The position numbers and the translations under genes were made by a program. From positions 310,001-374,000 of the forward strand of contig RSEE01000016.1 in NCBI GenBank assembly GCA_003971905.1: a DNA stretch of 64,000 nt, in the 5' to 3' direction. The notes under the pieces were generated by a model. It was not told the origin of the DNA. It saw only the letters and a list, made by a program, of their open reading frames with translations, and made no database searches. This DNA comes from Moniliella sp. 'wahieum'. Taxonomy: Eukaryota. Every line of letters begins with the position of its first letter. The first letter of the stretch is position 1. This document shows positions 1-59,517 of this stretch, piece after piece.

Positions 1-1132
1 TGAGCCTCAGCGGTGTGCTGGATGGGCAGCTCAGCTGGCTGGCGCCCTGCCGAGCCGCGCCTTCAGCTGCATGCACCCATGTCACATGTCAGCCTGCTTA
101 GCTTGGGCTCAGCGTGCGCGCGTGACGCTGAGCCCGCGTGACGCTGAGCCCCGGCCGCCTCAGCCCTGGCGAGCTCAGCCACTCAGTAACTCAGCGCTCC
201 GCTGGGTAGTGGCTCAGTGTTGTTAACTCGTGTTGCTGGTGTTGTGTCGGCCTGCAACCAGGTCCCAGCACCCACCAGTAACTAGTAACCCAGTCCCAGC
301 GGCATCCCAGTGCGGCCTCAGACCGCGCACCCACCCGACCCCCCAGCCCCCGCCATGCGCGCGGCGAGCGCGTCGCTGACATCATCCTCTTCCCGCCGCG
401 CATAGGCGCTGCTGCTCCCGTGGCCTGTTCTGCATTCTGCCTCGACCAACGCGCCTTCTCGTAGCAGCGCCTGGTAGGCATGGTGGATGGCCCGACGCGG
501 CAACCCTAGCCAGCACCGCAGATCATGCATCATGCATGTGCACCATGCCCCATAGCATCATGTGACTCTGTTGCGTGGCAGCGCTCTGGCTGAACGAAAT
601 GGTACCAACAACCTTTCACATTTCACCCCTCTCGCATCTCCGGCCTTTTGACGCGGCCAGCTCCTCCCTTGAAGCTTGAAGCTTGAGCCGAGGCAGCGTG
701 CCCTGCACTATCAAAAAGCACATCCCTCCCTCCAGCGCTGCAAGCGGTTGGGGCATGACCCGCGTGGGTCAAGCTGGAGATCCGAGATCTGAGAGTGTCT
801 TCCATCTACCCCATCTCAACTTCTCTGCGCGAGACAAGCAGGATTTGCCGAGGCCCCTTGTTTATTCGAACGAAAGAAAGATACATGGGGACTCAAGTGG
901 AGACAGGCAAAAGTGTGGATGGTCCACGTCGCAAAGCAAAAAATGGCAATGATGGCCCTTGGCGTATGCGGGGAGGATAGATCACGCTAGCCACTTCGCC
1001 GCTCAACTCTTAAGATCGCCCGTTAGAGAAAGGGGAGAGAGGATGGCTGTTAAAAGAGAGTCCGCGGAAGCGCCAAATGCCTGAGCTTCCCAAAGCAGCA
1101 ACAAAAGCTGCATCGCGCATGGCGCTCAGGGA

Positions 1133-1831
1133 TCAGGCCTTTGGCGGCGGGGCGTATCCAGCAGGAGGATAGCCCTGCGGCGCACCATACGGCCCTCCGG
1201 GCCCGCCGTACCCCCCCGCGCCGGCTAGAGGGGGAGTGAAAGATCCGCCTGCATCGGCGCGCCATTGGCAGATCCCACAGACCCAGATGTCGTGAGATTT
1301 GAATGGCTGCAGAGCAAACAAGGGGGTCAGCAATTGCGGTTTCTCGAAAAAGACACCACGTACGATCAAAGGAACCCAGCAGAGGGAGAACCATTGGCGG
1401 GTGCGAGCCGAAACAACTTGAGCATTGTGGCAACGCGGGCTGAGGATATGGGAGAGGGACAAGTCAGTATGACGCGCAAGCGAAAAAGGAATGATTAGCA
1501 AGCGCGGGGATGCATGGGACGTGGGGAGCAGAATAAGACGGACCAGACTGAGTAGTACACAAGGGACAGGAGGATCGAAACCGGGTTAGTACAACGCGAG
1601 AGGGGGGAGGAGAGGCAGCGCACCATGGGGTGTTGTATCAGTCTGCTTGAGGTGCTCATCGCAGCCAAAGATGATTGGAATGCCTGTAAACAAGAAGGGT
1701 CATCATGCATCACGACGATGGAGGTCAGCGCGTCAGCCTCAGTACCGAGTTACCATGAAGCTTGAGGCGTGCAGGTTGGAGCTGCCCCGCGACAGGTTAG
1801 CTTGCTGTTACGCACAGAAAAAGATGTCCAT
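1133..1831 (-). CDS. Small zinc-ribbon protein (zinc_ribbon_15-like; CPRC...CGIC) with Gly/Pro/Tyr-rich tail; 5 exons
   Basis: Exons 1831-1816, 1683-1624, 1547-1544, 1439-1364 and 1306-1133 (330 nt, all GT..AG introns) give MDIFFCIPIIFGCDEHLKQTDTTPHVCPRCHNAQVVSARTRQWFSLCWVPLIPFKSHDIWVCGICQW...GYAPPPKA*. Family assignment is from motif recognition. Confidence 0.8.
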
Positions 1832-2592
1832 TTCGGGGTTGGGCGATGGAGGAGGAGGAGGGAGTGGTGGTGGTGGTGGCGGCGGGGATGGCGACGGTGA
1901 AGCGAATCGGGGCACCGGGCACCCTTGGGCAGCCGATCAAAACGCCAAGCGTCTTGTCGCAGCCAACCTTGGGGTCGCTTGCTGCTTGCTCGCGCACCCG
2001 ACAGCCGGGCGAGACTGGTGCTGTGCACACGTGATGAGTCCAGGGAACGGCTGCAGGGAGCACTCTTGTTCTCTGCGCCGCATTCCGCACTGTCCCTGTC
2101 TTCCGTCCCGCCGCTCTGCACCCCAGGTCTAGGGCCAGGAGGGGCGCTACTAGCAACGCCAGCCCAGTGTACGTTCACATTTCAAGTTTGAATTTGAACG
2201 TTGAACGTTGAACGTCGGTGTTTGAATGTTTGAAATATCGTCTCCCTTGGTCCTACGCCTACTGGGCCTTGATGCATGATGGACTGGGATGATCGATGAT
2301 CGATGTGCCTGGCAGAGGCGACTCGTCCAGTCCGTCTCAGGATCCCACCTCCTACCAGCCACCCCCCACACTGCCATCGATTCCATCAAGTACTGTCTGC
2401 GGCGAAGACGCCACTATCGTACAACGCATTATACGACAGGATACCTCAGGGCACAGAATGAACGACGGTCTTTCCGCGCTCGTCCAATGAATAACCACAG
2501 AGGGAGGCATCCTACGCTCACGCCGGTGGCACAAGTGGGCACAGTCATGGGGTCCGATGGGGCTGCTGCGCAACACATGATACACGGAATGC

Positions 2593-4765
2593 CTACACGT
2601 CCGGTTGGGAAGGCATGGGCACGTCCTCTGTCTGCGTAGTCGAAACATCGACCGACCTTCTGGGCCGATGCCCGGACAGCTTGCGCGCCAGGCGATTCAC
2701 ATTTTCCGGTGCCTGCGCCGGGGCCCCATCCTCATCAATCATCGCTTCCTTGATCATCGAAATCGTAGACTCAATCGACCGCCGTCGGTTGGATGGCGAG
2801 GACATGGTCGTGCCCAGGGAGGAAGAGCGAGAGTGATGATGCGCGCCGGGAGGACGGAAAGCGGTCTTTTGTCCACTCAGGTTGGCCTTTCCGCCGGCAT
2901 TGGCAAACGAAGCAAACGGGGCCGGCTTGGCTGGCGACGCTTCCGCCTCCGTCGAGGCTGCAGCGGAAGGACGGGTGAGGAGGGCGAGGCCGAGCCGGTC
3001 GGGGAGTCAGTCAAGACACTTGGCTCTGCCGAGTCGATCGACATCATTGCTGCGTCGGGCGAGTTGGCATCAAACAGATCGGGAGGCAAGCGCTCGTTCT
3101 CAATGTCCACCTTACGCGCGTCGTCAAAGCCGCGAATGTTGTCTTTGACTTCCTCGGCACCAAGTACGAGGCTGTCGTACGGCAAGCTCGTCTCGCCTGC
3201 CGCCGACCGAAGTTCCGAAGACCGTTCGGTCTCTTCACGCAAAAGCGCGAAAACACACGGGACATGCGCCCGACCGAGAGAATTTTGTTTTTGATGGCGA
3301 CCTGACGCTCGCCATGCTCATCGACAAAGGACTCCTCGTCGTCCACCTCGACGTCTTCATCGGTTGCCGGCACACCCTCGCCTTCTTTCTTCAGTTATGA
3401 TGTCCTCCTCATCTTCCTCTTCCAGTTCCTCCTTGGAGCAAATATTGAGCAGAGAGATAAGCATGTCGGTAATCTTCTCCCGACAAAGGGGAGAGACCAC
3501 GTAAAGACATCCATAAAGTTGGGAAGCCAGTGGGGGGGGGAAGCATTGAACTGGCGAATGTTCATGACGTTGTTGTCGTACTTGAGCACAGCAGCCTTGT
3601 TGTTGTACACATCGAGGTAGTTGGGAGCCGAAAAGATCGTCATGACCGAAGGGAACCCGGTTGTCTTTGTTTTGCGATACATGCGATAGCCAGCGTCCTG
3701 CGCCTCGTGAGCTCGAATGACTGACAAAAGGTTGTTGCGCTCAAGGAACTGGCAGGTAGCAGCATAGGTAAAAAAGTAACTGCAGCCGCGGACGTGGTTG
3801 TGGAGGAAGAGGTCGTTGGTCTTTTCCGAGCCAAAATCTTCACATGGATCCGCCCAAAGGAGGTCGCACATGAGGCCATGCGTCGGCGGTTCCCGGAACG
3901 GTTCAAATCCCGCAGATCGTCCAAAGTTTGCAGTTCGGGAGACAAGCCACCATGTATGCAGAGGAATTGCTTGTTCATCAATGCGCCAAGGGGTAGGGTG
4001 CAAAATGATTCCATACACTCATCGTAGATATGCTCTGAATACTTGTGCTTGCCTGAAGAAGAAGAGTCCCATAGAAAAAAGAACATCGCAATCAGCAGCT
4101 GCGCGCAAAAGGGGCAGGAGGGAGGGGGGGGAGAGGTCAGGTGAGTGTGACGTACACTCGAGTTTGAAGGTGAAGTAGTCGGTCAGGTGGCGACACTCAT
4201 GGTTCCCGCGCAACAGGAACACCGATTCGGGGTAGCACATCTTAAGGGCCCACAGGTACAATACACACTCGATGGAGAAGTAGCCACGATCGACGTAATC
4301 GCCCAAGAACAAATACCTGTTCTCGGCTGGGTCACCTCCGACTTCAAACAACTTCATCAAATCGTAGTACTGCCCATGAATGTCGCCGCAGACAGTGATG
4401 GGTGCGTCAACTTCGAGCAGATTAGGCTCGGTGCGGAGGAACTCAGTGGCACCATGAATGATAAAAAGTGCCTGCTCGTCGGTCAGACGCCCTTCGCGGT
4501 AAAGGTGGTTCTTGAGGAAAGCCAAGTCGGGCTTGGTGTGCTCAGGGTCAGCATAAAATTGCTCGTCGGTGGGTAGGTGAAAGGCAGGCGCTTGAACATC
4601 CTTGACAACACGCTCTTGGGTGGAGACCTCGGTGCCATCGTCGAGGACGTGGACAGTGAAGTCAATCTCGGGCTTGGGCAGTTCGCTTTTGCGCTGGATC
4701 TCACCCAGGGCAGCGTGAAGATGCTCCTTGTGAGCCTGGGCCTGGGCCTGGTTGGAGGAGGCCAT
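2593..4765 (-). CDS. CNA1: Calcineurin catalytic A subunit (PP2B)
   Basis: GDIHGQ, GDYVDRG, LRGNHE and SAPNYLD motifs; CnB-binding [17 protein letters not shown]; calmodulin-binding [15 protein letters not shown]; autoinhibitory [16 protein letters not shown]. Intron 4155-4053. Several frameshifts. Confidence 0.95.
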
Positions 4766-6242
4766 GGTGGAAGAACAATAAGGTGGTGATGAGAGTAGGA
4801 TAGGGTGGGAGGCGTTGGCGCTGGTGTGGGTGTGGGTGCGGGTGCGGGTGTTGGTGTTAGTGTTGGCGATGATGCTAGTCTTGCTTGCTTGTCTTGGTCT
4901 TGGCCTTTGCCTTGATGTGGGTCCTGTGGTTGCCGCTATTGCTGCTGTTGGCGGTGGCTAGTGGCTACCGCCCGTCCCGGCTTGTCGCACTCAGCCTCAG
5001 CGCTGAGCCTCAGCAGTCAGCCATAGTCAGGCCTCAGGCAAAAACAGCAGGCGAGAGGCGCGTGGAGCAGCGAGCAGCAGCGGCTCTCAGTGCCGCCGTG
5101 CCAGCGCCCTACGCTTACGCCGCTATTGTGCCGTGTCGTGCGCTAGCCTGCCCAAGCTGCCACGCCCGACTGCCCCCATGCTGGATGGATCAACGCGCGG
5201 ATTCGTATTGAGCGATAGGGTTGGCGCGGGGCGATGAAATTAATGAAAGCTATTACTAGCTACTCGTTGCTGCTACGTACAACTGTGGCTACGTAACGCC
5301 GACGCGCAACGCGTAAACATACACAGCGTCGGCGAAGAAAGCGCCGCGGCCACATTGCCGGCACAAGTCACTGGTCATGTGGCTGATTATCGATCGCCTC
5401 TTTCTCTCCCGCCTCGTTTCCGACTCGCACCCGCACACCACCATTAAATATTAACACCCCATCGTCACACGACTGGCTTGGCTGCTTAGCGCTTAGCCTA
5501 AGCGCTTAAGCCACTACAAGGTGTATCACCTCAGATCTCATCTGCCTACCCATTGACCACGCAAAGGCCATGGTGTGAGTGTGCCCCCGAGGATGAGAGC
5601 CGCAACGATCAATTCCTATGTCGATCGCGCGCGGCTGATGATGAAGATAGTGGGGGCGGGGGCTCGTTGTTATCATAGTATGACTTTTTTGTACCGGCAA
5701 GCACGCTTTTTTGTTCTTTTGTGACATGCAGGACATGTACCGCAAGAAGAGAGGTCGGTTCACCCAGTGGTACTTGAACTAATACCTCCAGGAAAGCTAT
5801 ATAGCAATGGGAAAAAATGAGTGATGCAACTTCCTGATGCACACATGAGGTATTTTGCGGGAGACGAAACACCACAGCAGATTGGTTTGCTTGAGCCTTT
5901 TTGCTGGCTTTACATGATGCATGACAGGGGAATGATTGATGTCTGTCTCTTCTTTCGCCCATCTCATCACTATAGCACAGCTGGCTAATAGCATCAGCGC
6001 TCTTCGATTGGCAGACATCCGTAGTATAAGTATTGTATCAACAAACATTACCAAGAAGGGAGGAGATCATGCCGATCATGCAGCTAGTATGTGACATGAA
6101 TGCCTGCGTGGTTGCTGGGAAGATTGTCCGTTAGCGTCGAACGTTGATCAGGTGAGCATGAAACAGCAGACTGATCATCGCATAAACATATCATGCGCTC
6201 TGCTTGACCGACAGGTCTGAGTCGATTGGCAACGCCTTCTCT

Positions 6243-8314: not shown

Positions 8315-9694
8315 TGTACCACAACTTCAGAAACGGTGGAGGGCCTAAGCCAAGAAGATGGGCTGGGGAGAGACTATATTCTTCTCCAGGCTCCCATCGC
8401 TCGCGCGGCCTTTCATATATGGCAGGAAGGCGTCCGGTGGCAGGTGTTGGAGATCCCAAATCCCACAATCAGTAGCTGCGACTCACTCATGAAGGAGGTT
8501 AACTCGTCGCCTCCTGTTGCAGGAGGCGCCCTCCGGCCCTATCTGCCGTGCGCACGCCACCGCTTCGACCGACGTTGCTTATATCCATGGTACGGTATAA
8601 TATAGACCCTTTATTCATCAAACCTCGACCGCCCAATCCTGCGGACGGTATGGCATAGTATAGTAATAGGATAATAGTCACTTTGAACACCTCCCCGCAT
8701 GTCCAGTTCTCCGGCAGCAGCTCTTCGGAACATGTTAGTCCTACCTGTTTCTGATTGAGGGAGAGAGCGATGCGGTTATCAACGTTTCAGTAGTCGCTAT
8801 ATACATAAGCAACTGCTAACACGACGCAAGTGGGGCGTATCTCGACTTTTGTTGTGCTTTCTTTCAAGTGCATCCCTTTCATTCTGCTACTCTCTCCATC
8901 TGCCAGGTTTTTGCATCATCCGCGTCACCGTGTCTTCTCAAAGGACCCTTTTGCCTCCCTTCCCTTTTCCCGACGAAGAAATGTTGTGATGCCGCGCATC
9001 TGGCTGAGATGGAGTATGATGTCTTCTTCACAACCTCATAACCTCCCCCCCCCCCCCTTACACACATACACCCACCTGTTTCATTTGAAGTTAGTACTAC
9101 CTTCTCTCTTGAAAAGATCACCTTTTCTTTCCTCTAGGTCCTCCCAGATTTTCTCCGTCCCGTCTCGTCAGCGCATCAACCATACCTGTATCTGTGTTAT
9201 CTCCATTGTGAACATGTCTCGGGAGCCGATGCTCAACGACTCCTAAATGTGAGTTGTATATGGAGACCTCCAGGACAGAGGGATGGCATAGGGCTGCTTT
9301 TGACTCGCCTACTCAGTAAGTACTCACACTATAGTCATCTGTTACGCGTTATCCAAGCGAAGACGTGCTGGAATGGCGGAGCAAAAGGAGAAGATCTACT
9401 AAATTTCAAAAGTGTGTGCGGTCCGATGTACATGTAAAGACGCGAGGTCGGAAGCACGCCAGATGGCGGTGAAGTGATGCATGCCAGGAAGCTCTTGTTC
9501 AATCAATGCCTGAGGCGGAGGAGAAATTGACCAGTCCTTTGTTGGCGATGAACATTCTAGTAGAATGTTGCTTGACCATTGCATTAGGACGAAATGCAAG
9601 CACACCAGAGCTGGCTTCACGTAACTCAAATCTTGACGTCAAACGTGGTACTTGATAGGTGAAGAACTAATTGACGTGGGCGTGAACATCGAAT

Positions 9695-9790
9695 GGCAAT
9701 GTGCCCGAGCGGTTAAGGGGATTGATTAGAATTCTGGTTCTAACCATCAATTAGGCTCTGCCTGCACAGGTTCGAATCCTGTCATTGTCG
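9695..9790 (+). tRNA. tRNA-Ser(AGA) with ~14-nt intron
   Basis: Acceptor GGCAATG/CATTGTC, anticodon arm ATTGA-TT-AGA-A..A-TCAAT, long variable arm, GGTTCGAATCC, followed by a T-run. Confidence 0.92.
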
Positions 9791-12328
9791 ATTTTTCTCT
9801 CCGGCGCCAACGACGCGTCCTTTTTGACACCCGACGTGACTTGGCCTGTACAAAACACGCAATAGAGGTGGGAAAAAAAGCCATATATACAACAGACCGG
9901 AGAAAACGTGTCGATCTTGAGCCTTGTTTGTAAATTTTGGGAAGAGGCGCCACTGCATGTTCGTGGGGAGGAAACAAGAGCAGAGGACATGGTGCTAAGC
10001 GGAAGAACAGGGAAGAAGCGAGACACTCGGGACGAGAAGAAATTGGAAATGGGAGCGAGATCAGCCAAACTATGGCAAAAGGTGAACATATTCTGTACCC
10101 TGATGAACTGGACAGAGGTTGGACGATGAGTTATTACATGTCATCAAATACGAAGAACCGGAGGACAATGGGCGATACCGCATCGTCCCTGTGTGGAGCA
10201 AGAGGGGGGGTAAGTGGAACCGGCACACCTGGGCCAATGCCGGTGCCCTCAGAAATGGAGGGGCAGCCTTCATCTTGCTTTTGTGGCCTTGCTCATGATG
10301 TTTGTTTGCGGGCTATCCTATCCTGACTCACTACCGCCACCATTCGGACTATTTGAGGGGGCTAATATGTGGACCAGGCGGCACCAACAGATCCAGTCAA
10401 GTGGGCAGCAATCCCTGCGTCCGTATTTTTTCCCTCATCAACCCCGACACACCACCCCTGCACTCGCCTCAGTCGCGATGGCATTTTACCACCTTGCACC
10501 TCGTATTTTCGCACGAATTTGAAAGTCCGCGGGCCGCAGCTCTTACTCGGGCGATGTGTATGCATCTCTTGGTCCGCCATCTCCTCTCCCTTCGAATCCA
10601 TATCATTGACAGAGCTTAAGGCTGGGACCCTACCTTTCCCATCTATCCTCCCGTACGCTCATTTCACTGAGGTGTGGCAGAAAGCTTCGGCCTGCACCAG
10701 GGGCACCATCGCGATTATATTGCTCTACATCTCCCAGGGCTCTAGACACAAATCCTTAGTAGGTTCCTCCGGTTTCTACATCCTCTGCTCCAAGGTACCC
10801 TCTGATTGGGGCTACATATAGCGCTTGCGTAAGGCCCTACCCTCTTTCACATCGCTTCATGTAACTCTATGATCTCTTCAGAACCAACATCTTCCATTCT
10901 TCTCGTCGTTTTGACGCTACAACATTTCGCAGCTCTCTCGGGCTCCACAGGGGTGCGTCCATGAGGCTCCTGGAAGGATCGACACAATGTACCCACTGTT
11001 TTGGGTATCTCTTGAACTTCAAGCTTCAAGCTACAAGCTTCAAGCTCCATTGAACATTGTGTGACTTCTGGCGTCAAAAGCTTCTAAAGCGGATGTGAAC
11101 CTGTAACCGGTTAGTGGGGGCCATGCTCAGCGCTCAGCCTGAGCTCTGACTAATGATTGAGGCCTGATCGATGATTGGTGACCTCAGAGGCCCTGAGGGG
11201 CCTGAGAGAGCTGGGCCTGAGAACCCTGAAGAGCGCCTGAGCCTTGGAGCTTGGTGCCTGATGCTGGAGGAGAGTAACTAGTAAAACCGCGCCAAGGGTG
11301 CTGACACGCTGACGTTGGACGCCATGAGTACACTGAGGAGTGACTAGTGACTAGTGAGCACGATGATTCAAGAGCGAGCGCTAAGCGCTAGGCGGCTGTA
11401 CCCTGAATATAGAAGCTCTTCTTGGCACTTGTTAATAGGCCTTGGGTCCTTAGGCCTTACCGGCCTTACCACAGTAGGCCCTTAGATTTTAGAGACCTTG
11501 TTTAGTTAGGCCAGTTTTGAGCCACAGTTAGGCCTTAGGCCTTGAGGCGTCAGAGACACGAAGCTGGAAGTGGAAGTGCGCTCTAGCTTGTTTTCGCACG
11601 CTCCCACACGAGGCTACAGGGTGAGTTGCTGGAGCCAACGCCTACATACAAGAGCTTAATTGTTAGTCGTTTCTGGTTTGGATTGGACGTTGTTGGTATA
11701 TATTTGGTGGCCCTGTGGATGTGGTCTGCTGAGATCTGCGGGTCTGACATCGACTGAGATCTGGCGTTTGGAATGTGCAGCCAGAGAAGCCAGAGCACGG
11801 CAGCCGCCGCTTGTCAATTGCTGGTCAATATCCAAAATCCAGCCGTACCGGGCACAACGGAGGGCGCACGAGGGCGCAGGCAGCCCCAGCAGCGGCCAAG
11901 GGCGGGGCCTATAACGCGTGTCTAAGGTCCAAGGCCCAAGGCCTAAGCGCCAAGCGCTCCCTCAGGTCTGAGCCTGAGGCAGCCGCGCGCAGGAGCTTCG
12001 CGCTGAGTGCGCTCCGCAGGGCCCAGCGAGGCGCCAGTGTCCCCCTCGCATCGGTTCCCCACTCGCTGGTGATCGATGATTGGTGGCCCCATCCCAGGCG
12101 GTGGGTGCGAGGATCCCGGCGCGCTTGTTCCGAGTTTCTGAGTTCTGTTCCAAGTCCTCCCAGTCGAGGTTGAGTACGTTGAACGTTGAGTGTACTGAGT
12201 TCGGGTTGCGTTCGGCGTTCTGAGATCAGACCCCAGCGCGAGCCTGAGGCTGTCTGGCGCCAAACCCATCCGTTTGCAACCACGCACCAGAGGAGGTGCT
12301 GCTGCTGCCGCACCTCACCACCACCTCC

Positions 12329-15300
12329 ATGCTTCGCCCCGTCGCGCGCCGGCCGGCTGCTATCGCCTCTCCTGCGGCGGGCGGCGGCGGAAGCGACTGT
12401 GGAGACGACGAGTATCACTGCAGTCAAAGCCCTGCTGGCCGCCCATGGACTCGAGTTCCACTCTGCCCTCCGCAAGATGGGCGAGGGGGGCGATGTGGGT
12501 GCAGGAACACCGTACGAGATCCAGTGTGTCTCTCATCCTGAAGGCAAGACAGTCTGGCACTTCCGCCCCCCCCCGCCCTACTCCTCCCGCTCCCCGCGGC
12601 GATCCGTCGCTCCTGCCCTTGGCCGCCCCGAGGGTGCTGCGCTGCAATGTGGAGACATGCTCGGCGCCATCCTTTCCACCCACCCTTCCTGGAAACGGAC
12701 TACTTCAACCCGCCCTCCTCCCCCCTTTGACGCCCCGCTGGGCCCCAGCGTCCACTTCCACCCGCTCACAGCCGCTCAGTGGGCGACCCTGCCCCACCGC
12801 ACCCCTCCGCCTCCAACACAATTGGACGTCGACGGCCGGGACCGAATCAAGGCGCACTTTGATTTTTCCATCCTTTGACGCAGGGCGAGCAGCATAATTG
12901 GACAGAGGACCCTCGTCTTGCCATTTGGGGGGTTGCTCACACCGACGCTCCTGGCCGGGTGCTCCAAACCTCGGGGCCATGCTCTCCTAGCACAACGTTC
13001 CCCTTAATGCAGGCCCACTCCTCCCCGGCCCTCTCCTGCAGCGCCCACTCTACCCCCGAGAGTGAGGTGGTGCCGCCGCTTCGGGATTGGGAAATAGCAG
13101 CGCTCTTTCCACAGGGGAAAGCAGCCTTATTGGCAGCGTCACTCGAACGCCTCGTGGCCCAACTCACTTCGTTCCTCGACACGCGCCTCCAGGCTGATTT
13201 TTTTTACACGTTTCGTCTTTTTATGTCTCCGGACCACTGCTCGATCTCTTGTTGGCCCGCTTGGAATGGAGCTTCCTAGTCCTGACGGAACAGAGGGCGG
13301 AGAAGATAAGGGAAGCCGAGCTGTCGTCCGAGTCAGGACCATGGTCCTTCTCCGATGTTGGCTCTTCCACTTTTTCGAACAAGATTGGTATCCATCCCCT
13401 GCGCTGCGATCCAAGCTATGCACTTGGCTCAATACATATGCTCAAGCACCCCACGGTGCAGAGGGAGTTTTGGCTGCGCTGAGGAAAACGGTGCGCTCTC
13501 TTCAACAGAAGTATGGTGCGGCCGCCTGCCCTGACTCGCTCGACGCTCCCCTATGTTTGGAGGAACTACTTCCCCGCTCTCTCTTTTAGAGCGGAAGCTA
13601 CATTCGCTCCCCCTTTGCTTTTGAGGGAGAAACGAAGCCTTCTTAATACGAAATGGGGGTCCACCCTTCGCATGCCCCGCCCGGCAGGAAGGCGAGAGAT
13701 TAGGCTCAACACCCAAGCTTCTTCCACTGCACCTGCCCAGGTTCTGGATCTCCTGTCTTCCCCAGATGAGTTACGGTCCTACCTTCAATCGTGTGACGTG
13801 ACCATGTCGTTTGAGCAGCCGGACTACGGATCCCGTCCCAACATCGAGAAGGAGCCAGAAGGGGACGAAAAAACCATCATCCCTTCTGTCCAATCTTCCG
13901 CCCGAACTACAAGGGACCTTTCCTCTTGTTCGTCCTGCTCTTCCTCTTTTTCATCCCAACCCAGATCTGAGCGGTCGTCTCGCCATTCTCCCCTGCCCCC
14001 CGCTGATCCCTCCCAACAACAGTCAGGCATCACTCCCCCCCCTACCGCCCAAGATTCTCCCACGAGGCCTTACGTGCCCCCTTCGCCGCCCCGCATGTCC
14101 AACCATCCCGACGGATGGCTCGAAACTCTGATCCCTCAACACGAACTGGAATCTGTCATGACTGGTTCGGTCCGATCCACCTCGGTCCAATCGTTTACAA
14201 CTTATGACACCCAAACTTCGTCCGCTCGTTCGGCCGCGCCGTCGGGGGCCACCTTTGGTGTGTACTCCGATGGATCACATGGCGTCTCCCCCGAGACTCG
14301 ACCCAAGACTTTGTCGAGGAGCATGTGCGTTCCTTCATCCCCCCCCGCAATGCTTTCTTCTTATGCTTACCTTCTCCACCTCAGATTATGGGGCAGGGAG
14401 CGCCCTTGAGAAAAGAACAGCCTGCCGCCCTGGATCAACCTGTTGTTTTTGGCGATGCAACGCATACGTTGAGCGGGAGAAGCTCGACGGCTTTGACTGA
14501 GCACGATGTGGGTAGCAGCAGAGACGAAGCAAGTGGAGACAGAGAATGGTTGTTCCCTTCACCATCGCCATCCACTCAGCAGGTAGCCGAGTCTACGGCT
14601 CTCCCCACGTCTCCTTATTGGCCAAGGAAGAAGCGACAAGAAGCGTGACCCCTACCGACGACCTAGGCGTGGGCGATTCGGCTGGGGCATCAATTCCGAT
14701 CGCCGGGGCGTCTCGTGCCAAGCAAAATGAGGAACGGGCCCTCCTGAGCGACCCCCTGGGCCACCTGCGATGGAGACAGGGGTGAGTTGCCCTCTGTGAT
14801 CGATGAGGCTCCCATCCTCTCCCCCAGTGCAGCGACCGAACCCAAGACGGACCACGTTGATCCCAGCAAACCTGCCTTTCTTTCACCAAGCGACATTTTG
14901 GGTCCGGCCCACATGCCTCGAAGGGGTTGGGCCAAGCCCGAGCTTTCACTTGCCGAATCAAAGCAGCCACAGTCGTGGGCTCCCCACCGCCGAGCAAAGG
15001 GTCCTGGAATCCCGCGTGACGGAATGGGAGGCAGAGCGTCGCCATCCCAGTCAGCGGGGGAGCCTACGGCGGCAAGTGGGTTTGATCGCACCCTTCACTT
15101 GGATGACTTAGATCTCTCCAGCGACGAAGATGGGGAAGTGGTTCGTCGAGCGCTTCGTCGTCTGCCTGGGGCGACACAGTTGCGGAATGCGCTCCCTGTT
15201 TCGGCCTCGTCCAGTGTTACAAGTGTTGGCGAGCTCCCGGAAGAAGGGGATACGGGCATAGGGTGGTGCGTTCGGTGCTGCCGTCGAACCAGCGGAGCCT

Positions 15301-19418: not shown

Positions 19419-20512
19419 GGTGGGTTAGAGGGGAGCAGCCGGGGCCAGCCGATGGGGGTTGGTCGCCTGGCGGGGGGGGGGGGGGGGGGGGCACACGCGT
19501 GCGCACTGCCCGGGTGCTGCCTAGCAGCCGGGCCGGGAGCGTGGCGTGGGTCGCTCACGCTCCGATGGCTGAGAACGCAGCTGGCCGCTGCCCGGCATGC
19601 GGCCCTGCAGCACCGCACCGCCGCACCCGTCGGCCCTCGTCCGCGTCACTTAGCTGATGCCCAGCCACGGCCCCCCGCCGCCCCGCCCCGCGCCAGCCAG
19701 CGCCCAGCGCCCGCGTGCAGTACGTACACTGCCCGCCTGCGGCCTGCCTGGTGCGGCCTGCCTGCTGCAGGGGGGCAGTTTGAGGTCACCGCTCAGCCCC
19801 AGCGCTCACCTTTCAACATCACGCGTCATCCTGCATCATGCATCACGCTCAGCGCACCGCAGACGACGCTGCTGGGGCACGAGGCTGGGCCAGTGCCTGG
19901 CCCCAGCAGGCGCCCCAGCCTGCCCAGCTGGCAGCTGCAGTTGGCTCATTGGGTGTCGGGGTGCGACCGAGGCGCGGCTGGCCACTGCCCCCCTGCCGCC
20001 TTCTCTCCGAAATTTCATCCATGCTCCCACTTTCCTGGCGCCCTCCACTTCGCGCTGTTTCGCACCGCAACCCGCACAGGGGCAGTGTCCGCACCCAGCC
20101 GACGTCACTTGTTCCAATCCTGCCTGGCTGGCCAGCGCTGGCTGCTGGCCACTGCTGGCCCCATCAGCCCGTGCTGAAACTGAGCCACTGAACGCTGGAC
20201 GTGCACGGCACGTGCTGAATTGCCAACCAGTGTGTTGCCAAAATTTTCCGCCCACCCACACGTGACCGCGTCCCCCGCTGGACCAACACGTGTCTCCCCG
20301 TCAACTGGCGGTCCCAAACAGCTTCGAGTCGTGCTACCTGTGCCAACCGTACCACTCATGGGGAGCGAAGAAATTCACCCATGCATTCATTCCTCGTCGG
20401 AAAAGATCGATGGCACGCTCGGGCGCCCCGTGTGCGATGCCGAAAGTACCACCGTCTTGGTTCGCAGTGACGCCGATCGCCCCCAGGCCGACGGGCGAGG
20501 AGGCCGGGTCAG

Positions 20513-22147: not shown

Positions 22148-23584
22148 TTACTTAGATGACGCGCTCGCGCAAAACTGATCAATCTCTTCCTCTTGTCCAA
22201 TCTCTTCGCGCCTCCACCCCCGAGCGCGCTCGACTGCCCGTTTCCAACCTAGAACACCAGCCGCACGAACCTCGTCGGAGATAATGGACTCAAAGGTATG
22301 TCTGCCCTTGGTATTGATATCCTTCCGCGTCAACGGCTGGCTCCGGTCCCACCCCTCCAGCCCCACCGCCGAGGCCGCCATGAGTGCCGACCCAAGCGCA
22401 GTCGGCTCGCGCATCTGCGGACGCCTCGCGATCCCGAGCAAGTCGGCCTGGATCTGCATCGCTTCGTCACTGGTTGTCATTCCCCCACCCACCACCAGCG
22501 ACTTGAGCTGAATCCGGCTGTCCAGGGCGCATGTGTTGAGCCACCGGGTGGCTCGTGCTTTGGCCAATGTCCCTTCAGTTCCTCCTCAGGCCTAGGAGTT
22601 CCGTTGTTTTTCTCTCCTGTTTTTTCCTTGTTCCGCAGCTTAGCCCCTGGTGGCGACTCGCTGTTTGATGTTCCTCAGTAGGCGTTGCTAGTTGGCTTAG
22701 ACCATCACCACCACCATCAGTGCGATTGCATCACCTCGAGGACATCCGGACTCCAGGTCTCATCAGCATGGCCTCAAGGATGGCACGCATTGTGTAGCAC
22801 GCCGCTTCGACGCTTTTTCTCAGAGTGCCGCTGGTCCACATGCATCTTCTCTCCTCTTCGTCATCTGGCTCTCCAGGGGCAAGCCAGTCGCGGGTCAGGT
22901 AGAGTAGGCCAGGGCGAACCCGTACCGTGTGGGTGGATGTGCCGCACTCGATGAAAACGCACCTTGTTCTCTTCATTCTCGTTTCGGTGTCTGTGCCAGT
23001 GCACCCCAACACGATCGCCCCTGTCATTGGCAAGCTGCTTGGTCGTCGGATTCGCCCGCTGGTCTGGGGCCGCTTTCCTCGTCCTCGTTTCGGGCCCCCC
23101 CAAAGCCCAGTACCCCGTCTCCCGCACCCGTACTCCATCTTGTCCAGCGCCTTTTCCATTGAGGCTCTTTTGTCATGAACATGGCGACCCCGAACGTGGG
23201 ATTACAGAGAACCAGTGCCAGGATGGTCGCCTTACCACCCTACCATCTCTCCGCACCAGAGAGTGCCTGCTGGGAACAAAGGTCCATGGAAAGGCACGTA
23301 CGGCGTAGACGCATGGGGATATACATATCCATACCACCGGCGCACCCACCTCGCTCATACCACAACGTGACCGCCGCCGCGCAAAGCGCGGGCTGCTGCT
23401 CTTCCTGTTCAGGCGGTAAAGGGGTGGACAGGTGCTGAGCAGTGGCGGCAGCGTCGAGGGTAGCGCGATCCAAATGATCGGCCCAGCCGGAACGGTGGAG
23501 GCGTTGGTAAAATGGGCGCGAGACGCATCCGCTTCGTCGGCCGAGCTGGGTCCAGGGGCGGCGCAGGGTGAGGTCGGCTGGCAC
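22148..23584 (-). pseudogene. Degenerate glycerol kinase-like (FGGY family) gene; C-terminal domain recognisable
   Basis: EAACYTMRAILEAM, LKSLVVGGGMTTSDEAMQIQADLLG, RRPQMREPTALGSALMA and WKRAVERARGW resemble the glycerol kinase C-terminus. The N-terminal half is barely recognisable and too short. Confidence 0.6.
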
Positions 23585-28334: not shown

Positions 28335-29126
28335 GGTGGTGGGGGAGAGGCCGGGGGCGGCGAGGGCAGGGGAGGCGGCGAGGGGGGCCAGCGCTTAGCC
28401 CCTGCCGGGCGGCGAGACGAGACGGCGGGCTGGGTGGCGGGGGGGCTGCATTGGATATTGGGGCCTGAGGGCTGGGCATGTATGTATCCGCGCCCAGGGT
28501 GTGCGGGGGCGGTGGCTGGCGAGGGGCGTACCAGCAGCAGCCGTGGCGTGGCTGATTCTCGATGATCGATTGCCTTACCACTCCTGAGCCACTGAGTACG
28601 CACGGAGTCCTGGTCCTGGTGCCAGTGGCTGATGGCTGATGCTGATGCGTGATGGGATGCACGGGGCATGGGCATGCATCATGCATCCGGCCGGCGACGG
28701 CTGATGTGCTGACAATCGCAGTGCCCCCAACAACCCCACAGCGCACCCCGGCCGGAGCGGTGCGGGCGGTGGGGACGAGCTCGGACGCGCCGCAGCAGCA
28801 GCCCCACCACCACCACCCCATGCACAGCCCCGACCCCCGCCCCCCGCCGCCCCCGGCTTCTCTGACCCCCCCCGCTCCTACCGCGCCGCCCGCCGCGCCA
28901 TCGTCCAGCACACCTACCACTACGCCCCGCCCCGCCCGCTCCCCTCCGCAGCCCCGCCCCCGCCCCGCCCCGCCCCCGCCCCCGCCTCCTTCCGCCCGCC
29001 CCCACCGCCGCGCGCCCCTCCCGCCCCACCACCACCGCCCTCACACCGCCCACCACTTCCCCGCCCGCCCCGCCTTCCCGCCCGACCCCGACCCCGGCAC
29101 CCTCGCCGCCCATCCCGCCTCCACCC

Positions 29127-35692: not shown

Positions 35693-36302
35693 GGTGGCCC
35701 TATCGTCGTGGGTGAACGCGGATGCATGGTGCGTCCGTCGCTCTGTGGCTTTCGTCGGTGGCGCGGCGGCCGTTCTGCCGGGCTTTTTTTTTGTTAGGGT
35801 GGCTGGTGGGGTTTGTTCTGTTCGTCCATATGCACACTTTTGATGTGATCCATCCCTCGTTTGTTTCTTTTGCCGTTTCTCCGATCTCCCCCCCACCGCC
35901 ACCCCACCGTGCTCTCCCGTTTGACTATCCTTTCTCTGTATCGACAAAATGTGTGTGTGTCCCTATATTGGTATGGCTGGCAGAAGCGACCCACCTATTT
36001 CCCTCTGCCGTCTTTCAGCATTTCTCCCCCTGTGGGTCACAGAGCAGAGCAATTTAAGGCCCCGATTGGGGAGGGTTGTAGTGACCGGTGGCCAGTGACT
36101 AGTGACCAGTGACAAGGCACTGCGACGCAGTGCAAGCCAAGCACCCACCAACTGTGCCGGCGCTTGGACCCACAGAAGCTGGCTGCGCCATGGGCAGTCG
36201 CTCGCCAGTCGCCATTCCTGCTAACGCTGGAGCGAAATATGTATGCTCGCTTCCGTTCCTTGCACTCGTCTGCACGCCCATTAATACAAGCCCAAGACAT
36301 GA

Positions 36303-36397: not shown

Positions 36398-36790
36398 TTC
36401 TTTTTGCCCGACAAGCTGAGCTGCTCTGAGGCCGGGCGGAATCATAATCAGACCCGGCGGGCCCCAGCCTACGGCCCCTAGTCTCTCCAGATGTCTCCCG
36501 AGGCTGCAGATGGGGTGAGTGCATCAGGTTGGCGATAACTTGGGCCTGATGCTGATGGGCTAAGGCTGACCTCAGCGCGCTGAGCCTCAGCCCGGAGGCC
36601 TCCGAGGCACACTCGGTCCTCCTTCCGTCGGCGTACTCGAGTAGTTAACTAGTAACTAGTCACCCGCACTGGGCCGCTGTGCTGATGCGTGAGACGCGCG
36701 ATGACGCAAGCAGACACGCACGCTTCCCCCCACACCTCCCACTGCGCATCCCTGCCTCTTTTTACCCCGCCGCCACCGCCACCGCCACCC

Positions 36791-39407: not shown

Positions 39408-39750
39408 GGCGGGGGGGGGGATGGGGGCGCGACGGACAGCAGGGGAGAGACGCGGGATGGGCGGCACGTGAGAGGCAGCGGCTGGCGTCCCAACCAGCGC
39501 CAGCGGTTGATTGACTACCTGGCTGCGGCCCACCCCAGCACTGGCAAGTGGCGCGGCAGCGGAACTGCGGCCGGCAACATTGAAACCAAGAAGTTTTAAT
39601 TAGCAGCAGACAATTTTGCTGGCCACCACCACACCAACCCCCCCGGCCCCGTCGCAGCCAGAGGCGAGCCAGGCCGAGCGAGATGCTGCCTCTCCGCCTG
39701 CGCCTGTTCCGGCAGGCGGGAGGAGTCCCCTCCGCCCACTGTCTGCTGCC

Positions 39751-43755: not shown

Positions 43756-44042
43756 CCGCTTCACCTCCCTTCGCCTACTTCCGCATGCATGCTTACCCTT
43801 CCTTCTGCCTCCTCAAGCGTGCTTGGTCATAGTCCCCGCCCTACTCTCCTAGCCATGGTAGACAGGAATGGGGCAAGCATCCTACGCAGTAGGAACGTAA
43901 AACGGCACCTGCCATTCATTGGCGCGAGAGCCGTGAGCACTGTAGACCCCCCCGCCCCGCTGCCTATCACATCCACTGGGTCCCTGCCCCGCCTATCTCC
44001 TTTCCATCTCGCATAGACCATGGGATCATCGATAATACAAGC

Positions 44043-48401: not shown

Positions 48402-48450
48402 GTCGGCAGCAGCCTGGGTGGTGGGGATGCTGGGGTAAGATGCTGGGCCG

Positions 48451-48546
48451 GACGCTGAGCACGACGCTAAGCACGACGCTAAGCACGACGCTGAGCACGA
48501 CGCTAAGCACGACGCTGGGCACGACGCTGGGCAAGATGCTGGGCAA
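48451..48546. repeat. 12-bp tandem repeat (GACGCTRRGCAM) x8 upstream of the TF start
   Basis: Eight units read directly, drifting from GACGCTGAGCAC/GACGCTAAGCAC to GATGCTGGGCAA. Confidence 0.9.
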
Positions 48547-48917
48547 GAGGAATTTTGTCGGGAGCAGCCACGGCGAACCCCAATCGAGCGCTCGTGCCCA
48601 TCGTCAATAGCCGCGGCCAAGCTTTCAAATAGCTATGCTCACCGCTCACCGTTAAACGTTAAATGGCCCCCCGCCAACGCGCCTACGTCACCCATGGTTA
48701 CCTAAGCATCCTGACGGTGACCCCCTTCGCCACCAGCGCCCCGGCGCTTTCCGCCCTTCTCCGCCCCCGCGCTACAGCCGCGGGGATGGCAGCCATCGGA
48801 ACCGGAACCGCCGGACCACCACCCCCAACTACCCCCCGCTCTGCATTGCTCGCTGATCCGTCTGGGCGCGCATTCCATTTTTCATATGGGTCTCTCTGCA
48901 ATGAGACGCATCAGTCT

Positions 48918-50424: not shown

Positions 50425-50673
50425 GGTGGTGGGTGGGTGGGGATGGGGGAGAGGTGGGGTGAGAAGTGGGGTGAGAAGAGGCGGGACTGGGAGGAAATTG
50501 CTGGGGTAATCGGTAAAATCATGGGCGCCGTGCCGAATCGGAGTTACGCGCGTTACGCGTTACGGGTGGTCTTGCTTCGCTTGCAGACCATGGGGGCGTC
50601 GCGGGCTGCAATGTTCACATGCTTACGTGACACTGCCGTAAGAACAGGTGATCGCGCCGACCGGCGTCGGAGG

Positions 50674-50738
50674 GTGACATGTGACATGTGACACGTGCCA
50701 TGTCAGCGTGATGTGGCATGTCACATGTCACATGTCAC
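50674..50738. repeat. Perfect 20-bp inverted repeat in a divergent promoter
   Basis: GTGACATGTGACATGTGACA (50674-50693) and its reverse complement TGTCACATGTCACATGTCAC (50719-50738). Confidence 0.9.
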
Positions 50739-51036
50739 ACGACGTGTCAGCAGCTGAATCAGGCGCGGAATACTGGCGCTGTGCTGCGCTGCGCTGCTCG
50801 CAGCTTGTGTCTGGGATCTGGGCCAGCTCCTCGGGGCACACGCAGGCACCCGGCGGGTCTGGCGGGCTCAATATAGAACGGGCCCTGGCTGATAAGCGCT
50901 CCCTTTTTAAGCACCCAGTCGCTTATCGCTCGCGTGGGCTCCGCAGCCGGCACCAGCAAGGGAACAGGCAGCAGACAAACCCATCCCCCCTTTTCCCTCG
51001 CACGCTGCTCACCATCCCCAACGCGACCACCATCTC

Positions 51037-53477: not shown

Positions 53478-54329
53478 GGTGCCAGGGCGCAAAACGTATA
53501 TGGTTGACGTGGTGGCGGGGCTGTAGGCGGTCGTCGTCGTCGTCGGCTCCGTATCCACCTCCATCGTCTTCTTTTTGTCGTTCCATATTCAAAAAAAGAC
53601 TTAAGCTTATGTGGGTAACCCCCATGTGGATACCAGCTGACAGGCACCACACCGGTGAGGATCGGACCACAATGATGGTTGATTGATACACACTCAGTGT
53701 GGTCTGACCTACTTGGTGGTCTACTGACTTACTAAGTTCTTTGTTTAAGTCCTTTCTCTTCTCTTCCCTACTTCGCATACTTGTAGGATGGCCCGCTCGT
53801 GGGTACAATGATATTCACTGCCACTTCCACCCCACTTTGCCTTGCTACTAGTAGACTCCGCTACCTTCAATATCAAGATGCACAGCTGATGCCGTTGTGA
53901 ACATATACCTCTCAAAACACTTTACGTTTTCTCAACTGATAAGAATCCGCATCATTGATTGACTTCTACACGTGCTCCCCTGTCCAAAGCGGTCGTCTGT
54001 TGGGGTTCTTTTAGTGCTCGCCCTTGCGGTCGCCGGAAGGGCCGCCGGGTTTCGGGGGGGGACGAGAGGGGAGCAGTGCCAAGGTTGGATGTTGAATAGA
54101 CTCCAGGGAGACCAGGTTGGATCTGTGATCCGTCACGAGGAGAGACGTTATTATCGAGTCTCCGGGTTGGCTCGACTCATTCGACCTGAGAAAGCATAGG
54201 CCCTACAAAAACGGAGGAGCTTCAGCATGCACCTACAGTCGTCACAGGTTAAAAGGAAACATCGAACCACTAACCGGCCAACCCACCCCACCTGAATAGA
54301 GGTTGGTCCGATTGCCTCTCTGGAGATCA

Positions 54330-56005: not shown

Positions 56006-56940
56006 GGTGTGCAAAGAGACAAGGAGGAGGAGGAGGAGGGTGGTGGTACTGGGGGTGCAATGGGTAAGCTTCTGGTGGGTGGAGAAGAGAAATGAATGTC
56101 TTTGCACTTCTATGTGCTGACTATGAGCTGCTTTTTGGCAGCGCAGCAGTGGCGCAGATGGCACCGGGTCAGCGTTCGGGCAGTGTGGGGTCGGCATCAG
56201 GGGCCAAGAGCGACTGCTGCGCCAGGCTAAAATCGGCGTCTCGCGCCAAGAACTAGCGACTCATCCATCGATCATCACCTGACATGCACCACCACCGCCG
56301 TCGTCGTCGCTGCCGCAGCAGCTCAAGACGAGGCGGTGCCCAGGTCTACCAGCTAGTCTACCTTTTTAGCATCTTCTCCTGAGCTGACCAATCCGTTTCC
56401 CACTTGTGTGTCTCAACCAGCTCGTCCCGAGGAACGTTAACGACGAGAGGGTGGGCGGGAAATTTGTTGACATGCGGGGCGAGAGAGCGAGATCCCCGAT
56501 GGGTTTTCCAGCACTAAGAACGGGGCGCCTATTTGGGGGTGAAAGGGGGACACACCCTCTCTTGCTCCATAGTCCGCCCCTGACTCTTGTGTATTCATTC
56601 ATCCAGCCCTGCAGCGCCCGAAGGAGCGTTCCTCGCTGATGACCTGAACCCAGCACCCACCCTTCCTTATTGTACTTGGCCTCCCCACAGGGCACTCTCT
56701 GCTCCCGAGAGCATTGCGGTCGGATTGAATAAAAAACAATCATATTGATTCAAGCGACCAAGGACATGTCAATGGGGCATGGTGCATCCGGCATCATGCC
56801 AGAGTGGCCTAGGAAGCCTCGGTCGACAGTGAGAGTGACGATGACAGTGACAGTGGCAGTAGGGGCGGCTGCGTCGATGACCAAAGGGCGTGGTGGGCGG
56901 TGATGCGGGGTTGAAGCGAGAGTGCTGACGAGCGTGACGG

Positions 56941-58256
56941 CTACAACAGAGTAAAGTGCTGTACCGACCGCCGCATATCGAGATCAATGCGCAGCACATG
57001 CTGAGGCGGGGCATGGGCGATTGCCTCCATCGTGGTCCGCATTTGCTCATCTGCATCCTCCGGCAGCTTCAGCCCCTCCAACCTCTCCGGGTCCCGGCCT
57101 GCCCATGAGCCAGGCAAGTTGGGCCCGAGCATCGTTGCTCTTGCCAGCGGTGCAATTTGCCCCGTCGACGCCCACATCTCGTATGCGGGCATGTAACGCG
57201 CAACAAAGGTTTCGATCTCTTGGTCACTCATCCCCTGGCCCAACTCGGCTTGCATCTTATGTTCCGCTTCCAAGCGCCATTGGAACGCATACTCCCACAT
57301 GGGGGTTTGCGCTTGGCGAAAGTCGCCTGCCTGCGCCGCAGCCCGAAAGCCCTTGACGGGCCACAGTTGGATCATGGCATCCACATACCCGCACCAGTGC
57401 TTGGCGTATTGCTCCACCTTGGTTTCAATGTCCTCCAGGTCAGACCTTCTGTGGTTGGACAGGTAACGGGATTGGCTCTCATCCTGAAGCAGCTCATTGT
57501 ACCGCTTGATCACCCCGTCCACACCTAGCGGAGCAAAGCCAAGACACCAGCCTTCAATCAGGAACACGTCCAACTCTCGTGGGTTGGTCACCACACCGAC
57601 CTCGGTCGAACGGTCGCCTTGGCCACCTTGGGCCGACTTGTCGTACACTGGCAAATGCGCCACCTCGGCCGTTTGCGGATAGTGCGGGTACTCACGCAGG
57701 CCAGGCGGCGGGTCCACTCCACGCATATTGGCCAAGATCCGCTCCCCCAGGTCGACGTCGTGCGTGCCGGGCATGCCGCGGCCATCGTACAGCGGGTTGT
57801 GCGGGTGACTCGCACGTACCGCCGCGAGTTCTTGGGCAGGGAGGTAGAGGTCATCAATACTGAGAACGGCGACGCGGAGTCGGTAGCCGCCCGAACTCAA
57901 CTCTGTGGCAAGGCGGCGGACTAGGGTGCTTTTGCCTGAGAAGGGAGACAGGGGGCAAGAAAACGAACGCAAAAGAGAGAGAGAAAAACAGAAAAAGAAA
58001 GGTCAGAGGAAAGGATGGAGCAGGAATCGATGGTGGCGCAGTACACACCACTACCTTGGGGGCCCTGGACACCAACGATGAGTGGGTGGGTGCGGGCACC
58101 AGCGGGGCGGAGGGCGAGTTGGGAAAGAACAAAGTTGCGGCACAGCTGCCAGGTCGCGACGGGCCACATGTGGGACGCGTCGCGGGAGAGCACAGCCTGG
58201 CCGTCGCGCCAAGCAAGGGAGGGGGCAGCAGTTGGGTCGCGTCGCGGACGGGCCAT
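56941..58256 (-). CDS. TDA10: TDA10-like / D-glycerate 3-kinase-like P-loop kinase
   Basis: IVGVQGPQGSG|KST across an intron, plus SIDDLYL, GRGMPGTHD, EGWCLGF, WRLEAEH and FVARYMPAYE motifs. Confidence 0.85.
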
Positions 58257-59517
58257 TGGATTGTTGGGAGCAGGGAGCAGGGAGCGGGGGGCACAGGGGC
58301 GTGAGGAGCAGCGTGCGCCAGCAGCGACGCGGGGAGGCCGGGCGGGGTGGGGGGGAGCCGGCGCGGCGGGTGGGGGGCAGGGAGTGGGGGCGCGGTGGGG
58401 GTGGGGCGGCGGGGGGGCGGCGGGAGGGGGAGGGGAGGGAGACGTGGCCGGGTGTGCTGATGGTGTTCGCGGGGCGCGCTCGAGTGGAAATTCCACTGCT
58501 GGGCGGACTGGCGGCCGTTCGGCCTGGACGGCGCTCGGCGCGGGCGAGCAGGGGGCCGCACAGGGCCGCACAGGGCCCACAGCCGCCGCGTGCTGCCGCC
58601 CTGCCGCCGCCCACCGCGCGCTGCCCCCTGCTGCGACCGGCTGCGACAGTGCCCCCGCAGCACGCGGGCCACGTGTGCTGAGGTAATCTGCGCCCACCTG
58701 CCGCTCAGGGCGACCGGGAGGGCCCAGGCGGCTTTTGCGGCCGCAGCCATCGCAGTCGACAGGCCTCACCTCAGGCCTCGACGCCTACGGCCTGATCCTG
58801 ACCGCGGGTGGGCGCATCCATCGATCTGCCTTGCCTCTCTTGCCATCCAGCCAGCCTCCTGGGCGACGCTTGCAGCTGGATCGAGATGGCCGATTGCTGG
58901 ACTTGGCCCCTTGGCAGCGACGATTCAATATTCATTCGGCGGCCAGGCATTCAGCCTGACAACCGGCCTGAATCAATCCGGCCGGCGTTGGATGTTGGAG
59001 GCCAGTTGAAATTGCAGGCCCCTCGGACATGCGAACGTGGTCATCGAGGCCATCGATCATCGATCATCTTTGATGGGAACGCTACTGCGCGTACTCAGTA
59101 CTCGAGCACCGAGTAACTGAGACTGAGTACTCAACTGAGTGTACCGAGTGTACTCAGACCGAGCCAGTACACGGATTGGCAGTGCTGACCGTTTCAACAT
59201 TCACCTGTTTGCAAGGTAGAATTTGGATCCCTAGGCTGTGATTTGCATGTGATTCATGGCAGCAGCATGACATGATGACAGCGTAGTGCAGACAGGCACA
59301 GGTAGGGTTACACGTTGAACATCCATTAAATATTTCACGCGTCACACTTCAAGCTGCTCATACACGTGGCAGGTTGGCTGTGGCAGGGGACACTGCCAGG
59401 CTGCTCCCAAACCCTACGAACGCGTACTGCCCCGTCCCCTATAATGTCTTCTGTTGCTCATCTCTCACAGGCATCGCCCTGGCCCGTCCCTACTCCTCAT
59501 CGCCAGTTTTCGACACC

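Follow-up and report, generated by a model that had tools for sequence, protein, structure and literature searches.

Palindromic 7-bp repeats upstream of Moniliella genes as probable excision scars of a cut-and-paste transposon

What writes short palindromes with freely varying cores, at a constant spacing, into the DNA upstream of genes? The question is raised by a stretch of 64,000 nucleotides from Moniliella sp. 'wahieum' (assembly GCA_003971905.1, 69.5 Mb in 223 contigs; contig RSEE01000016.1, C16:310001-374000), called the window below. An earlier reading of its letters (the original prediction) had described promoter-restricted arrays of palindromic hexamers with A..T ends and a 7-bp period, attributed either to a protein-binding platform read by shape or spacing or to a mutational process in open promoter DNA. 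Our results support a mutational process in open upstream DNA. With a probability of about 0.75, the sites are healed donor sites of a cut-and-paste DNA transposon, scars that record break repair and not a promoter code.

In the window, 12 of the 13 identical palindromic-hexamer pairs at period 7 are of the A..T type, and each other spacing from 6 to 15 holds 0-2 pairs; 200 dinucleotide shuffles in 1-kb blocks gave a mean of 0.01 and a maximum of 1. The unit is better written as TNA, any 4-bp palindrome and an identical TNA, of which the window has 42 examples (shuffles: mean 2.2, maximum 7). It is real and genome-wide: AAGCTTNAAGCTT (A..T) occurs 3362 times in the assembly, compared with 1 for the reversed control TTCGAANTTCGAA (T..A), 13 for CAGCTGNCAGCTG (C..G) and 10 for GTCGACNGTCGAC (G..C), and TSAAGCTTSA occurs 8700 times (control: 65). 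Apart from six such genome-wide pattern counts with controls, statistics come from 624 kb of the 69.5 Mb, namely the window, the next 100 kb of its contig, 60 kb of C17, four 50-kb blocks and twenty 10-kb pieces. Trinucleotide pairs were counted in 524 kb of this sample; same-TNA pairs enclosed a palindrome in 443 of 845 cases at spacing 4, in 13 of 463 at spacing 6 and in 5 of 285 at spacing 8, and no other trinucleotide rose above 51 of 475. The A..T ends, the 7-bp period and the free variation of the inner four bases were thus borne out, the last by the presence of all 16 palindromic cores among the 507 sites in 624 kb. Extrapolation from these 507 gives ~56,000 scars for the assembly, in agreement with the 8700 for one core.

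Other parts of the original prediction stood less well. Arrays exist but are a minority, since 327 of 403 runs are single sites. The symmetric junctions xT-N-Ax' occur inside arrays, but single sites usually have them on one side only, many of them reaching 2-3 bases in one direction and none in the opposite one. All quoted stretches are found where they were placed, although those at 11021-11047, ~50546-50563 and 59091-59131 are degenerate, with imperfect hexamer pairs.

The allele of the window on contig C4 is present in the assembly, so empty and filled versions of one site can be compared directly. The partners show 93-96% identity with gaps and ~3% substitutions, and ~194 kb of aligned alleles contain 5833 mismatches and 1712 1-bp indels. 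Indel sizes peak at 7 bp, with 60 cases, whereas 6 bp has 26 and 8 bp has 19. Of the 60, 38 contain a scar if one mismatch is allowed, compared with 2 of 26 and 5 of 19, respectively, and in 31 of these 38 the empty allele lacks the perfect scar. Over the 60 indels the best fit was the scar model in 26, tandem duplication in 4, a tie in 16 and neither in 14. One event adds a 5-bp copy and two inverted bases to an empty target ab-TNA-cd, giving either ab-TNA-cd-d'c'-TNA-cd (right-type, R) or ab-TNA-b'a'-ab-TNA-cd (left-type, L). At window positions 11273-11286, for instance, the plus strand reads AG-TAA-CT-AG-TAA-AA, an exact left-type scar, where C4 has AG-TAA-AA; CT, the reverse complement of AG, is absent from the empty site, and a tandem duplication is impossible here. 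The two inverted bases in the insert mean that slippage cannot make a scar. From the structure of the scars, the filled allele is presumably the derived one.

The same product emerges without alleles. At fully asymmetric targets there are 79 R and 69 L scars, 14 perfect duplications and 216 cases of the other 252 words together. The central N is copied directly, as same-N pairs are palindromic in 443 of 845 cases and complementary-N pairs in 38 of 197; with only two bases inverted, this sets aside the plain fold-back copy that had been proposed. Two minor classes contain the whole 7-mer twice, either with two inverted bases between the copies (23 vs 32 other) or with one (44 vs 22 other, including several repeats of one word). 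These classes imply that 7 bp were duplicated and that the inverted bases at the joint were templated. Simpler schemes fared poorly. PIF/Harbinger elements make a 3-bp TNA target duplication; in the scars two further flank bases, and in the minor classes all 7 bases, are also duplicated. A 5-bp-duplication model was rejected because its mirror class (inserted N'A) is rare, with 8-10 unshared cases vs 242 for d'c', and a double-P scar class that seemed enriched (24) fell to 0 of 378 under strict criteria.

How could excision give this product? The resident element family with CTCACTG ends, described below, inserts at ab-TNA-cd and duplicates all 7 bases. On excision, the transposase would seal each flank as a flush hairpin, and a host nuclease would open the hairpins mostly two bases 3' of the tip, leaving the 4-base 3' overhangs cdd'c' and b'a'ab. 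Either one overhang would then be joined to the opposite duplex end, or both would be ligated across a 4-base bubble resolved by replication; end joining would yield +7 bp, R or L equally. The minor whole-7-mer classes are what would be expected if flush hairpins were opened at a distance of one or two bases from the tip, in the manner of RAG and Transib. Any four inner bases are possible because they would be copied from the flank, and the A..T ends and the period of 7 would follow from the TNA target. We infer the flush hairpins, the opening at +2 and the end joining from these products. Both hairpin steps have precedents: RAG and Transib form flank hairpins on excision (PMC5499845), and Artemis opens RAG hairpins mainly at +2 and often at +1 (PMC2175297).

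Repeated visits to the same TNA would build arrays. By our derivation, a re-hit of a fresh scar has four outcomes, one with mixed cores and three uniform, a ratio of 1:3. Among triple arrays, 24 are mixed and 80 uniform (P 0.73 vs 1:3), and the mixed triples have the flanks predicted by the model in 21 of 24 cases on the 5' side and in 17 of 24 on the 3' side. Slippage cannot make mixed arrays but may lengthen the longest ones. If the transposon reading is right, tandem repeats are born here through repeated transposon visits.

A resident transposon family has exactly the predicted target. It is of the cut-and-paste type and has terminal inverted repeats (TIRs); its ends read 5'-CTCACTG...CAGTGAG-3'. 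The 4.85-kb copy on C11 (L094:234-5096) has TIRs no shorter than 83 bp, and both of its ends contain 11-bp subterminal repeats. The element was first located via a pattern requiring TNA beside the end motif, and 5 of 19 pattern matches to the element end were discarded as chance (core mismatches, not in the BLAST census). The flank census was then made without the TNA requirement. It comprises 20 ends, from full-length copies on C11, C23, C29, C34 and C35, a 378-bp copy on C20 and single ends. T-N-A occupies flank positions 3-5 at 19 of the 20 (background: 4.2%), and an exact 7-bp nn-TNA-nn duplication flanks five of the six two-ended copies (GATCATG, GTTGATG twice, CATCAAC and GATGATG). The exceptional end, on C8 (L098:187-200, compared with C23, L095:196-209), belongs to an allelic one-ended copy that lies in an older scar. 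The C8 allele has two extra bases at the element's end; they are identical with the inverted flank and also with the first two bases of the element, and could be either inverted flank bases rejoined to the element or a dinucleotide slip. One truncated copy sits within an earlier left-type scar. The full copies on C11, C23 and C34 are 0.25-0.56% substitutions apart vs ~3% between alleles, so the family moved after the alleles split. An element coding piece, which bears a weak resemblance to EnSpm-type proteins, scored 0.96 in Atlas to a cluster named for DUF4218, a match of low recognition value, and 4e-6 in BLASTP to a Tnp2-like gene, with two further weak unnamed matches.

Two other candidate sources were rejected. 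A CACTA element in C62 (L066:2430-6490, 4.06 kb), canonical and missing from the C17 allele, makes a 2-bp duplication, and polymorphic TG..CA insertions make 5-bp duplications. The latter, of 1.4 and 5.3 kb, resemble long terminal repeat elements (L074, L077-L079, C16 beyond the window). Searches of the genome with PF05699 (hAT dimerisation) and PF13960 gave 0 matches, with control genomes blank too, and metagenome scans for the two-core pattern and for the element end likewise gave 0.

Where do the sites lie relative to genes? Gene-position classes came from a simple coding/non-coding hidden Markov model trained on the sample and are approximate, with most introns merged into coding. Over 624 kb, sites per 100 TNA numbered 0.07 in coding DNA (6 sites), 1.18 in convergent gaps (31), 2.96 in tandem gaps (212) and 4.88 in divergent gaps (150), with a further 108 sites in unclassified edges; divergent and convergent gaps differ by an odds ratio of 4.3 (P 1e-16). 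The four convergent gaps named in the original prediction as free of arrays indeed hold 0 sites (162 TNA sites), but 13 of 37 convergent gaps in the sample have at least one. Promoter restriction is thus to be replaced by an upstream enrichment without fixed position: few sites lie within 200 bp of the coding start, and from there to beyond 2.5 kb their density stays level, with no peak. Newly arisen scars share the bias, as the allele comparison places 25 among 1233 divergent TNA, 1 among 814 convergent and 0 among 2919 coding, with 10 in tandem gaps and 2 at edges. This fits an element that prefers to insert into open 5' intergenic DNA, an early loss of those insertions that fall in genes, or both.

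The upstream bias is what speaks for a selected protein-binding platform read by spacing or shape, given the four-fold enrichment of divergent over convergent gaps. Such a platform is, however, scarcely plausible: it predicts neither the bias of new scars nor inner bases templated by the flank, the density of sites does not change between 200 bp and more than 2.5 kb upstream, and only 57 of 134 sites are identical between alleles, compared with 921 of 1635 neighbouring non-coding 10-mers (56-60%). Ordinary heptamer slippage is hardly credible as an origin and at most plays a minor role in long arrays. It may contribute to runs of up to six scars, and uniform arrays do differ in unit number between alleles (window 538 and 11528, both ties in the model fit); de novo events, by contrast, do not simply duplicate sequence of the empty allele (scar model better in 26, duplication in 4), mixed-core arrays cannot be had by slippage, and the one-sided reach of many sites also counts against it. 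We also considered a transposon-free repair or replication error, in which a staggered break or template switch at TNA takes two bases from the opposite strand as a templated insertion. It needs no element traffic and would suit the clustering of scars, 50% of which lie within 100 bp of another vs 22% of random TNA picks. Yet fold-back predicts a complementary N, and neither the exact whole-7-mer classes, nor the absence of 3-base analogues (3 vs 110), nor a resident element with a matching 7-bp target is expected from it, making this explanation very improbable.

Excision of the CTCACTG family as the source has to be weighed against several observations that count against it. About a dozen element sites (a lower bound) stand beside the ~56,000 extrapolated scars, and one scar per 5 kb between alleles amounts to thousands of events for that dozen. 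The elements' flanks are narrower than the targets of the scars, with CATCA/TGATG in 8 of 13 element flanks vs 33 of 282 inferred scar targets (P 3e-5), and three two-ended copies and one single end share one 7-mer. The flanks of the C11 copy, although both fit nn-TNA-nn, do not match, as after recombination between copies or a rearrangement. No element copy lies in the aligned 194 kb. Of the 7-bp indels, 22 of 60 are other than scars, and in 9 of the 26 events that the scar model fits best the centre of the empty target is not a perfect TNA. The scars are uniform, unlike the varied Ac/Ds footprints described in PMC5873905. Finally, Pfam matched 0 of 6 transposase pieces, their frames being broken in an assembly rich in 1-bp indels; with the transposase known only in such pieces, the excision chemistry is read from its products.

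Would the same hairpin chemistry, driven from elsewhere, remove these difficulties? Most scars could stem from other or extinct families with 7-bp target-site duplications, from hit-and-run integration with immediate re-excision, or from a host-kept Tnp2-like enzyme. A scar-to-element ratio in the thousands and the mismatch of element and scar targets favour this idea, as do two Tnp2/Transposase_21-like genes that lie between host genes at L091:3940-7240 (C17; allele L093) and L092:3260-6870 (C34), with no TIRs within 10 kb. These genes may be decayed or host-kept. Between alleles, however, the C17 gene has mismatches of 14/18/16 by codon position and thus no purifying signal; its own upstream region is scar-rich, and its protein had no match among 1325 candidates. 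The CTCACTG family, for its part, is young and has the predicted target, and the narrow targets of surviving elements could reflect retention bias as well as other families or another enzyme source. We therefore regard a source outside the CTCACTG family as rather improbable.

If the scars are excision scars of the CTCACTG family, how do they compare with known systems? Like V(D)J coding joints with P nucleotides, they have an even palindrome centred on the junction and one or two inverted bases, +2 being dominant (PMC2175297 and PMC5499845). Unlike those joints and Transib, they mark the donor site of a transposon, carry a 7-bp duplication, occur genome-wide in a fungus and show little trimming in the counted classes. 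Transib and RAG make 5-bp duplications. The Ac/Ds elements of the hAT group share the flank hairpins and a target duplication that is retained and joined through inverted bases, but the palindromes of Ac, unlike those of the scars, are odd, with the complement of the neighbouring base at their centre (PMC5873905). Here the odd-palindrome class, from a nick one base into the flank, makes up 26 of 97, with chance at ~25%. The 7-bp target duplication of the CTCACTG family is also that of hAT7 elements of rust fungi, as given in PMC12730594, but its coding remnant points to the EnSpm type. Near its ends the family has the CACTG core of the fungal CACTA/EnSpm elements CNIRT6 and CNEST and the CMCT clade, and it resembles them in its long TIRs, in the subterminal repeats behind these and in a weakly DUF4218-like remnant. 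Whereas CACTA/EnSpm termini begin with CACTA or CACTG, its termini add CT before CACTG, inside the duplication boundary in all copies read. Its 7-bp duplication differs from the 3 bp of CNIRT6 and 2 bp of CNEST (PMC12810828) and from the 2-5 bp of CMCT elements, which are related to RAG1 (PMC12730594).

The nearest printed idea concerns Ustilago maydis, where 10-bp repeats were suggested to be transposon footprints (PMC4081816, citing another paper). These, too, are small, intergenic and present in large numbers, and were taken for remains of earlier transposition. The Moniliella scars differ in that their sequence varies while following a rule, that alleles give them a polarity and that they can be tied to a resident element. 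The literature searched, with most subscription papers and the supplements and figures of PMC12730594 outside it, contained no description of the TNA-palindrome-TNA grammar or of an EnSpm-like element with a 7-bp target-site duplication. The scars are most likely a transposon footprint family, a variant of known excision footprints. If this is right, they show in tens of thousands of natural cases how hairpins were opened and ends joined, and they give a first hint, drawn from footprints, that an EnSpm-related element whose 7-bp target is unreported works by flush-hairpin chemistry, as well as a map of past insertion sites biased to upstream DNA. They would also be a caution that upstream-enriched palindromic motifs can mimic regulatory elements, and the older idea that small repeats of smut genomes are footprints would become testable. 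A bolder proposal, which we consider unlikely, is a standing hit-and-run mutator, made up of a few EnSpm-related elements or of an enzyme kept by the host, which leaves one stereotyped 7-bp insertion per ~150 substitutions, almost only upstream and without a rise in copy number. The elements would found a CMCT lineage with a 7-bp target, and the scars would supply regulatory variation and seed tandem repeats without slippage.

Within the window, several sites read on the plus strand differ between the alleles. At 426-439, a 5-bp copy with two inverted bases at the non-TNA centre TG-TTC-TG faces an empty allele (scar model 0 mismatches, duplication 1). The left-type scar at 9340-9353, with one C>T change, faces CG-TTA-TC in C4. 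Conversely, the window has the empty target CA-TCA-AC at 10436-10442 where C4 has an exact left-type scar (scar 0 mismatches, duplication 2). Right-type scars at 11163-11176, within the mixed array TGA-GGCC-TGA-TCGA-TGA, at 11480-11493 (one C>T change) and at 28457-28470 (one change) face empty CC-TGA-TC, CC-TTA-GA and AT-TGA-GG, respectively. The sequence at 11455-11470, CCTTACC-GG-CCTTACC, is of the net +9 class, with the whole 7-mer on both sides of two inverted bases. The sites between 11163 and 11493, like the example at 11273, fall in a dense hot spot in a divergent gap (11017-11543), which has AAGCTT, AGCGCT, AGGCCT, ATCGAT and ACTAGT cores and several sites that are 7 bp different in the allele.

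The remaining sites, from left to right, begin with TCA-CATG-TCA (ACATGT core) at 78-91 and TAA-CTAG-TAA at 277-289. An ATGCAT array at 522-537 has one extra unit in C4, and an AAGCTT array with three TGA at 668-686 is shorter in the allele. The cluster at 2194-2305 combines an AACGTT array (2194-2215), TGA-TGCA-TGA at 2270 and an ATCGAT array (2288-2305). Five single scars at 5027-5924 (5027, 5445, 5486, 5531 and 5915) lie upstream of a calcineurin-like gene, TGA-TCGA-TGA and TGA-ACGT-TGA at 12070-12189 lie before the next plus-strand gene, and two scars at 19819-19845 lie upstream of a minus-strand kinase gene. TGA-TCGA-TGA at 14797-14806 probably lies within the RasGEF gene and could have arisen by chance. 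An ATGCAT pair at 28673-28687 has a decayed first TNA, the left-type scar AG-TGA-CT-AG-TGA-CC at 36094-36113 is shorter in the allele, and an ACTAGT pair at 36646-36660 and TAA-ACGT-TAA at 48650-48663 follow. One divergent gap has an ACGCGT scar and two ACATGT arrays (50549-50739), another scars and decayed arrays (58925-59344: 58925, 59051-59068, 59091-59160 and 59335). CGCG-core scars such as that at 50549-50564 create ACGCGT, the MCB cell-cycle motif of yeast, and might in this way be co-opted for regulation.

The window has a G+C content of 59%, and its genes are fungal, probably of a basidiomycete: a calcineurin-like phosphatase with fungal best hits, an SSF transporter, RasGEF, a kinase, a CoA-transferase and a caspase domain. 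The assembly seems to be built from long reads without polishing, given that 1-bp indels relative to the allele are frequent and that conserved genes contain frameshifts. Among the window and C4, C17/C62 and C10/C47 there are both allele pairs ~3% apart and homeologous copies at 83% and 72% DNA identity, which suggests a hybrid or polyploid genome. Two multi-copy short elements at 9695-9796 and 9959-10080 may be a tRNA gene and a dispersed 5S rRNA gene, which they resemble. Stretches of 400 bp (53884-54286) and 216 bp (59274-59490) are missing from the allele and have no evident TIR or duplication. Also missing from the allele is a dispersed repeat of ~250 bp (22534-22765), which occurs at no fewer than 10 loci and is nested inside transposon copies.

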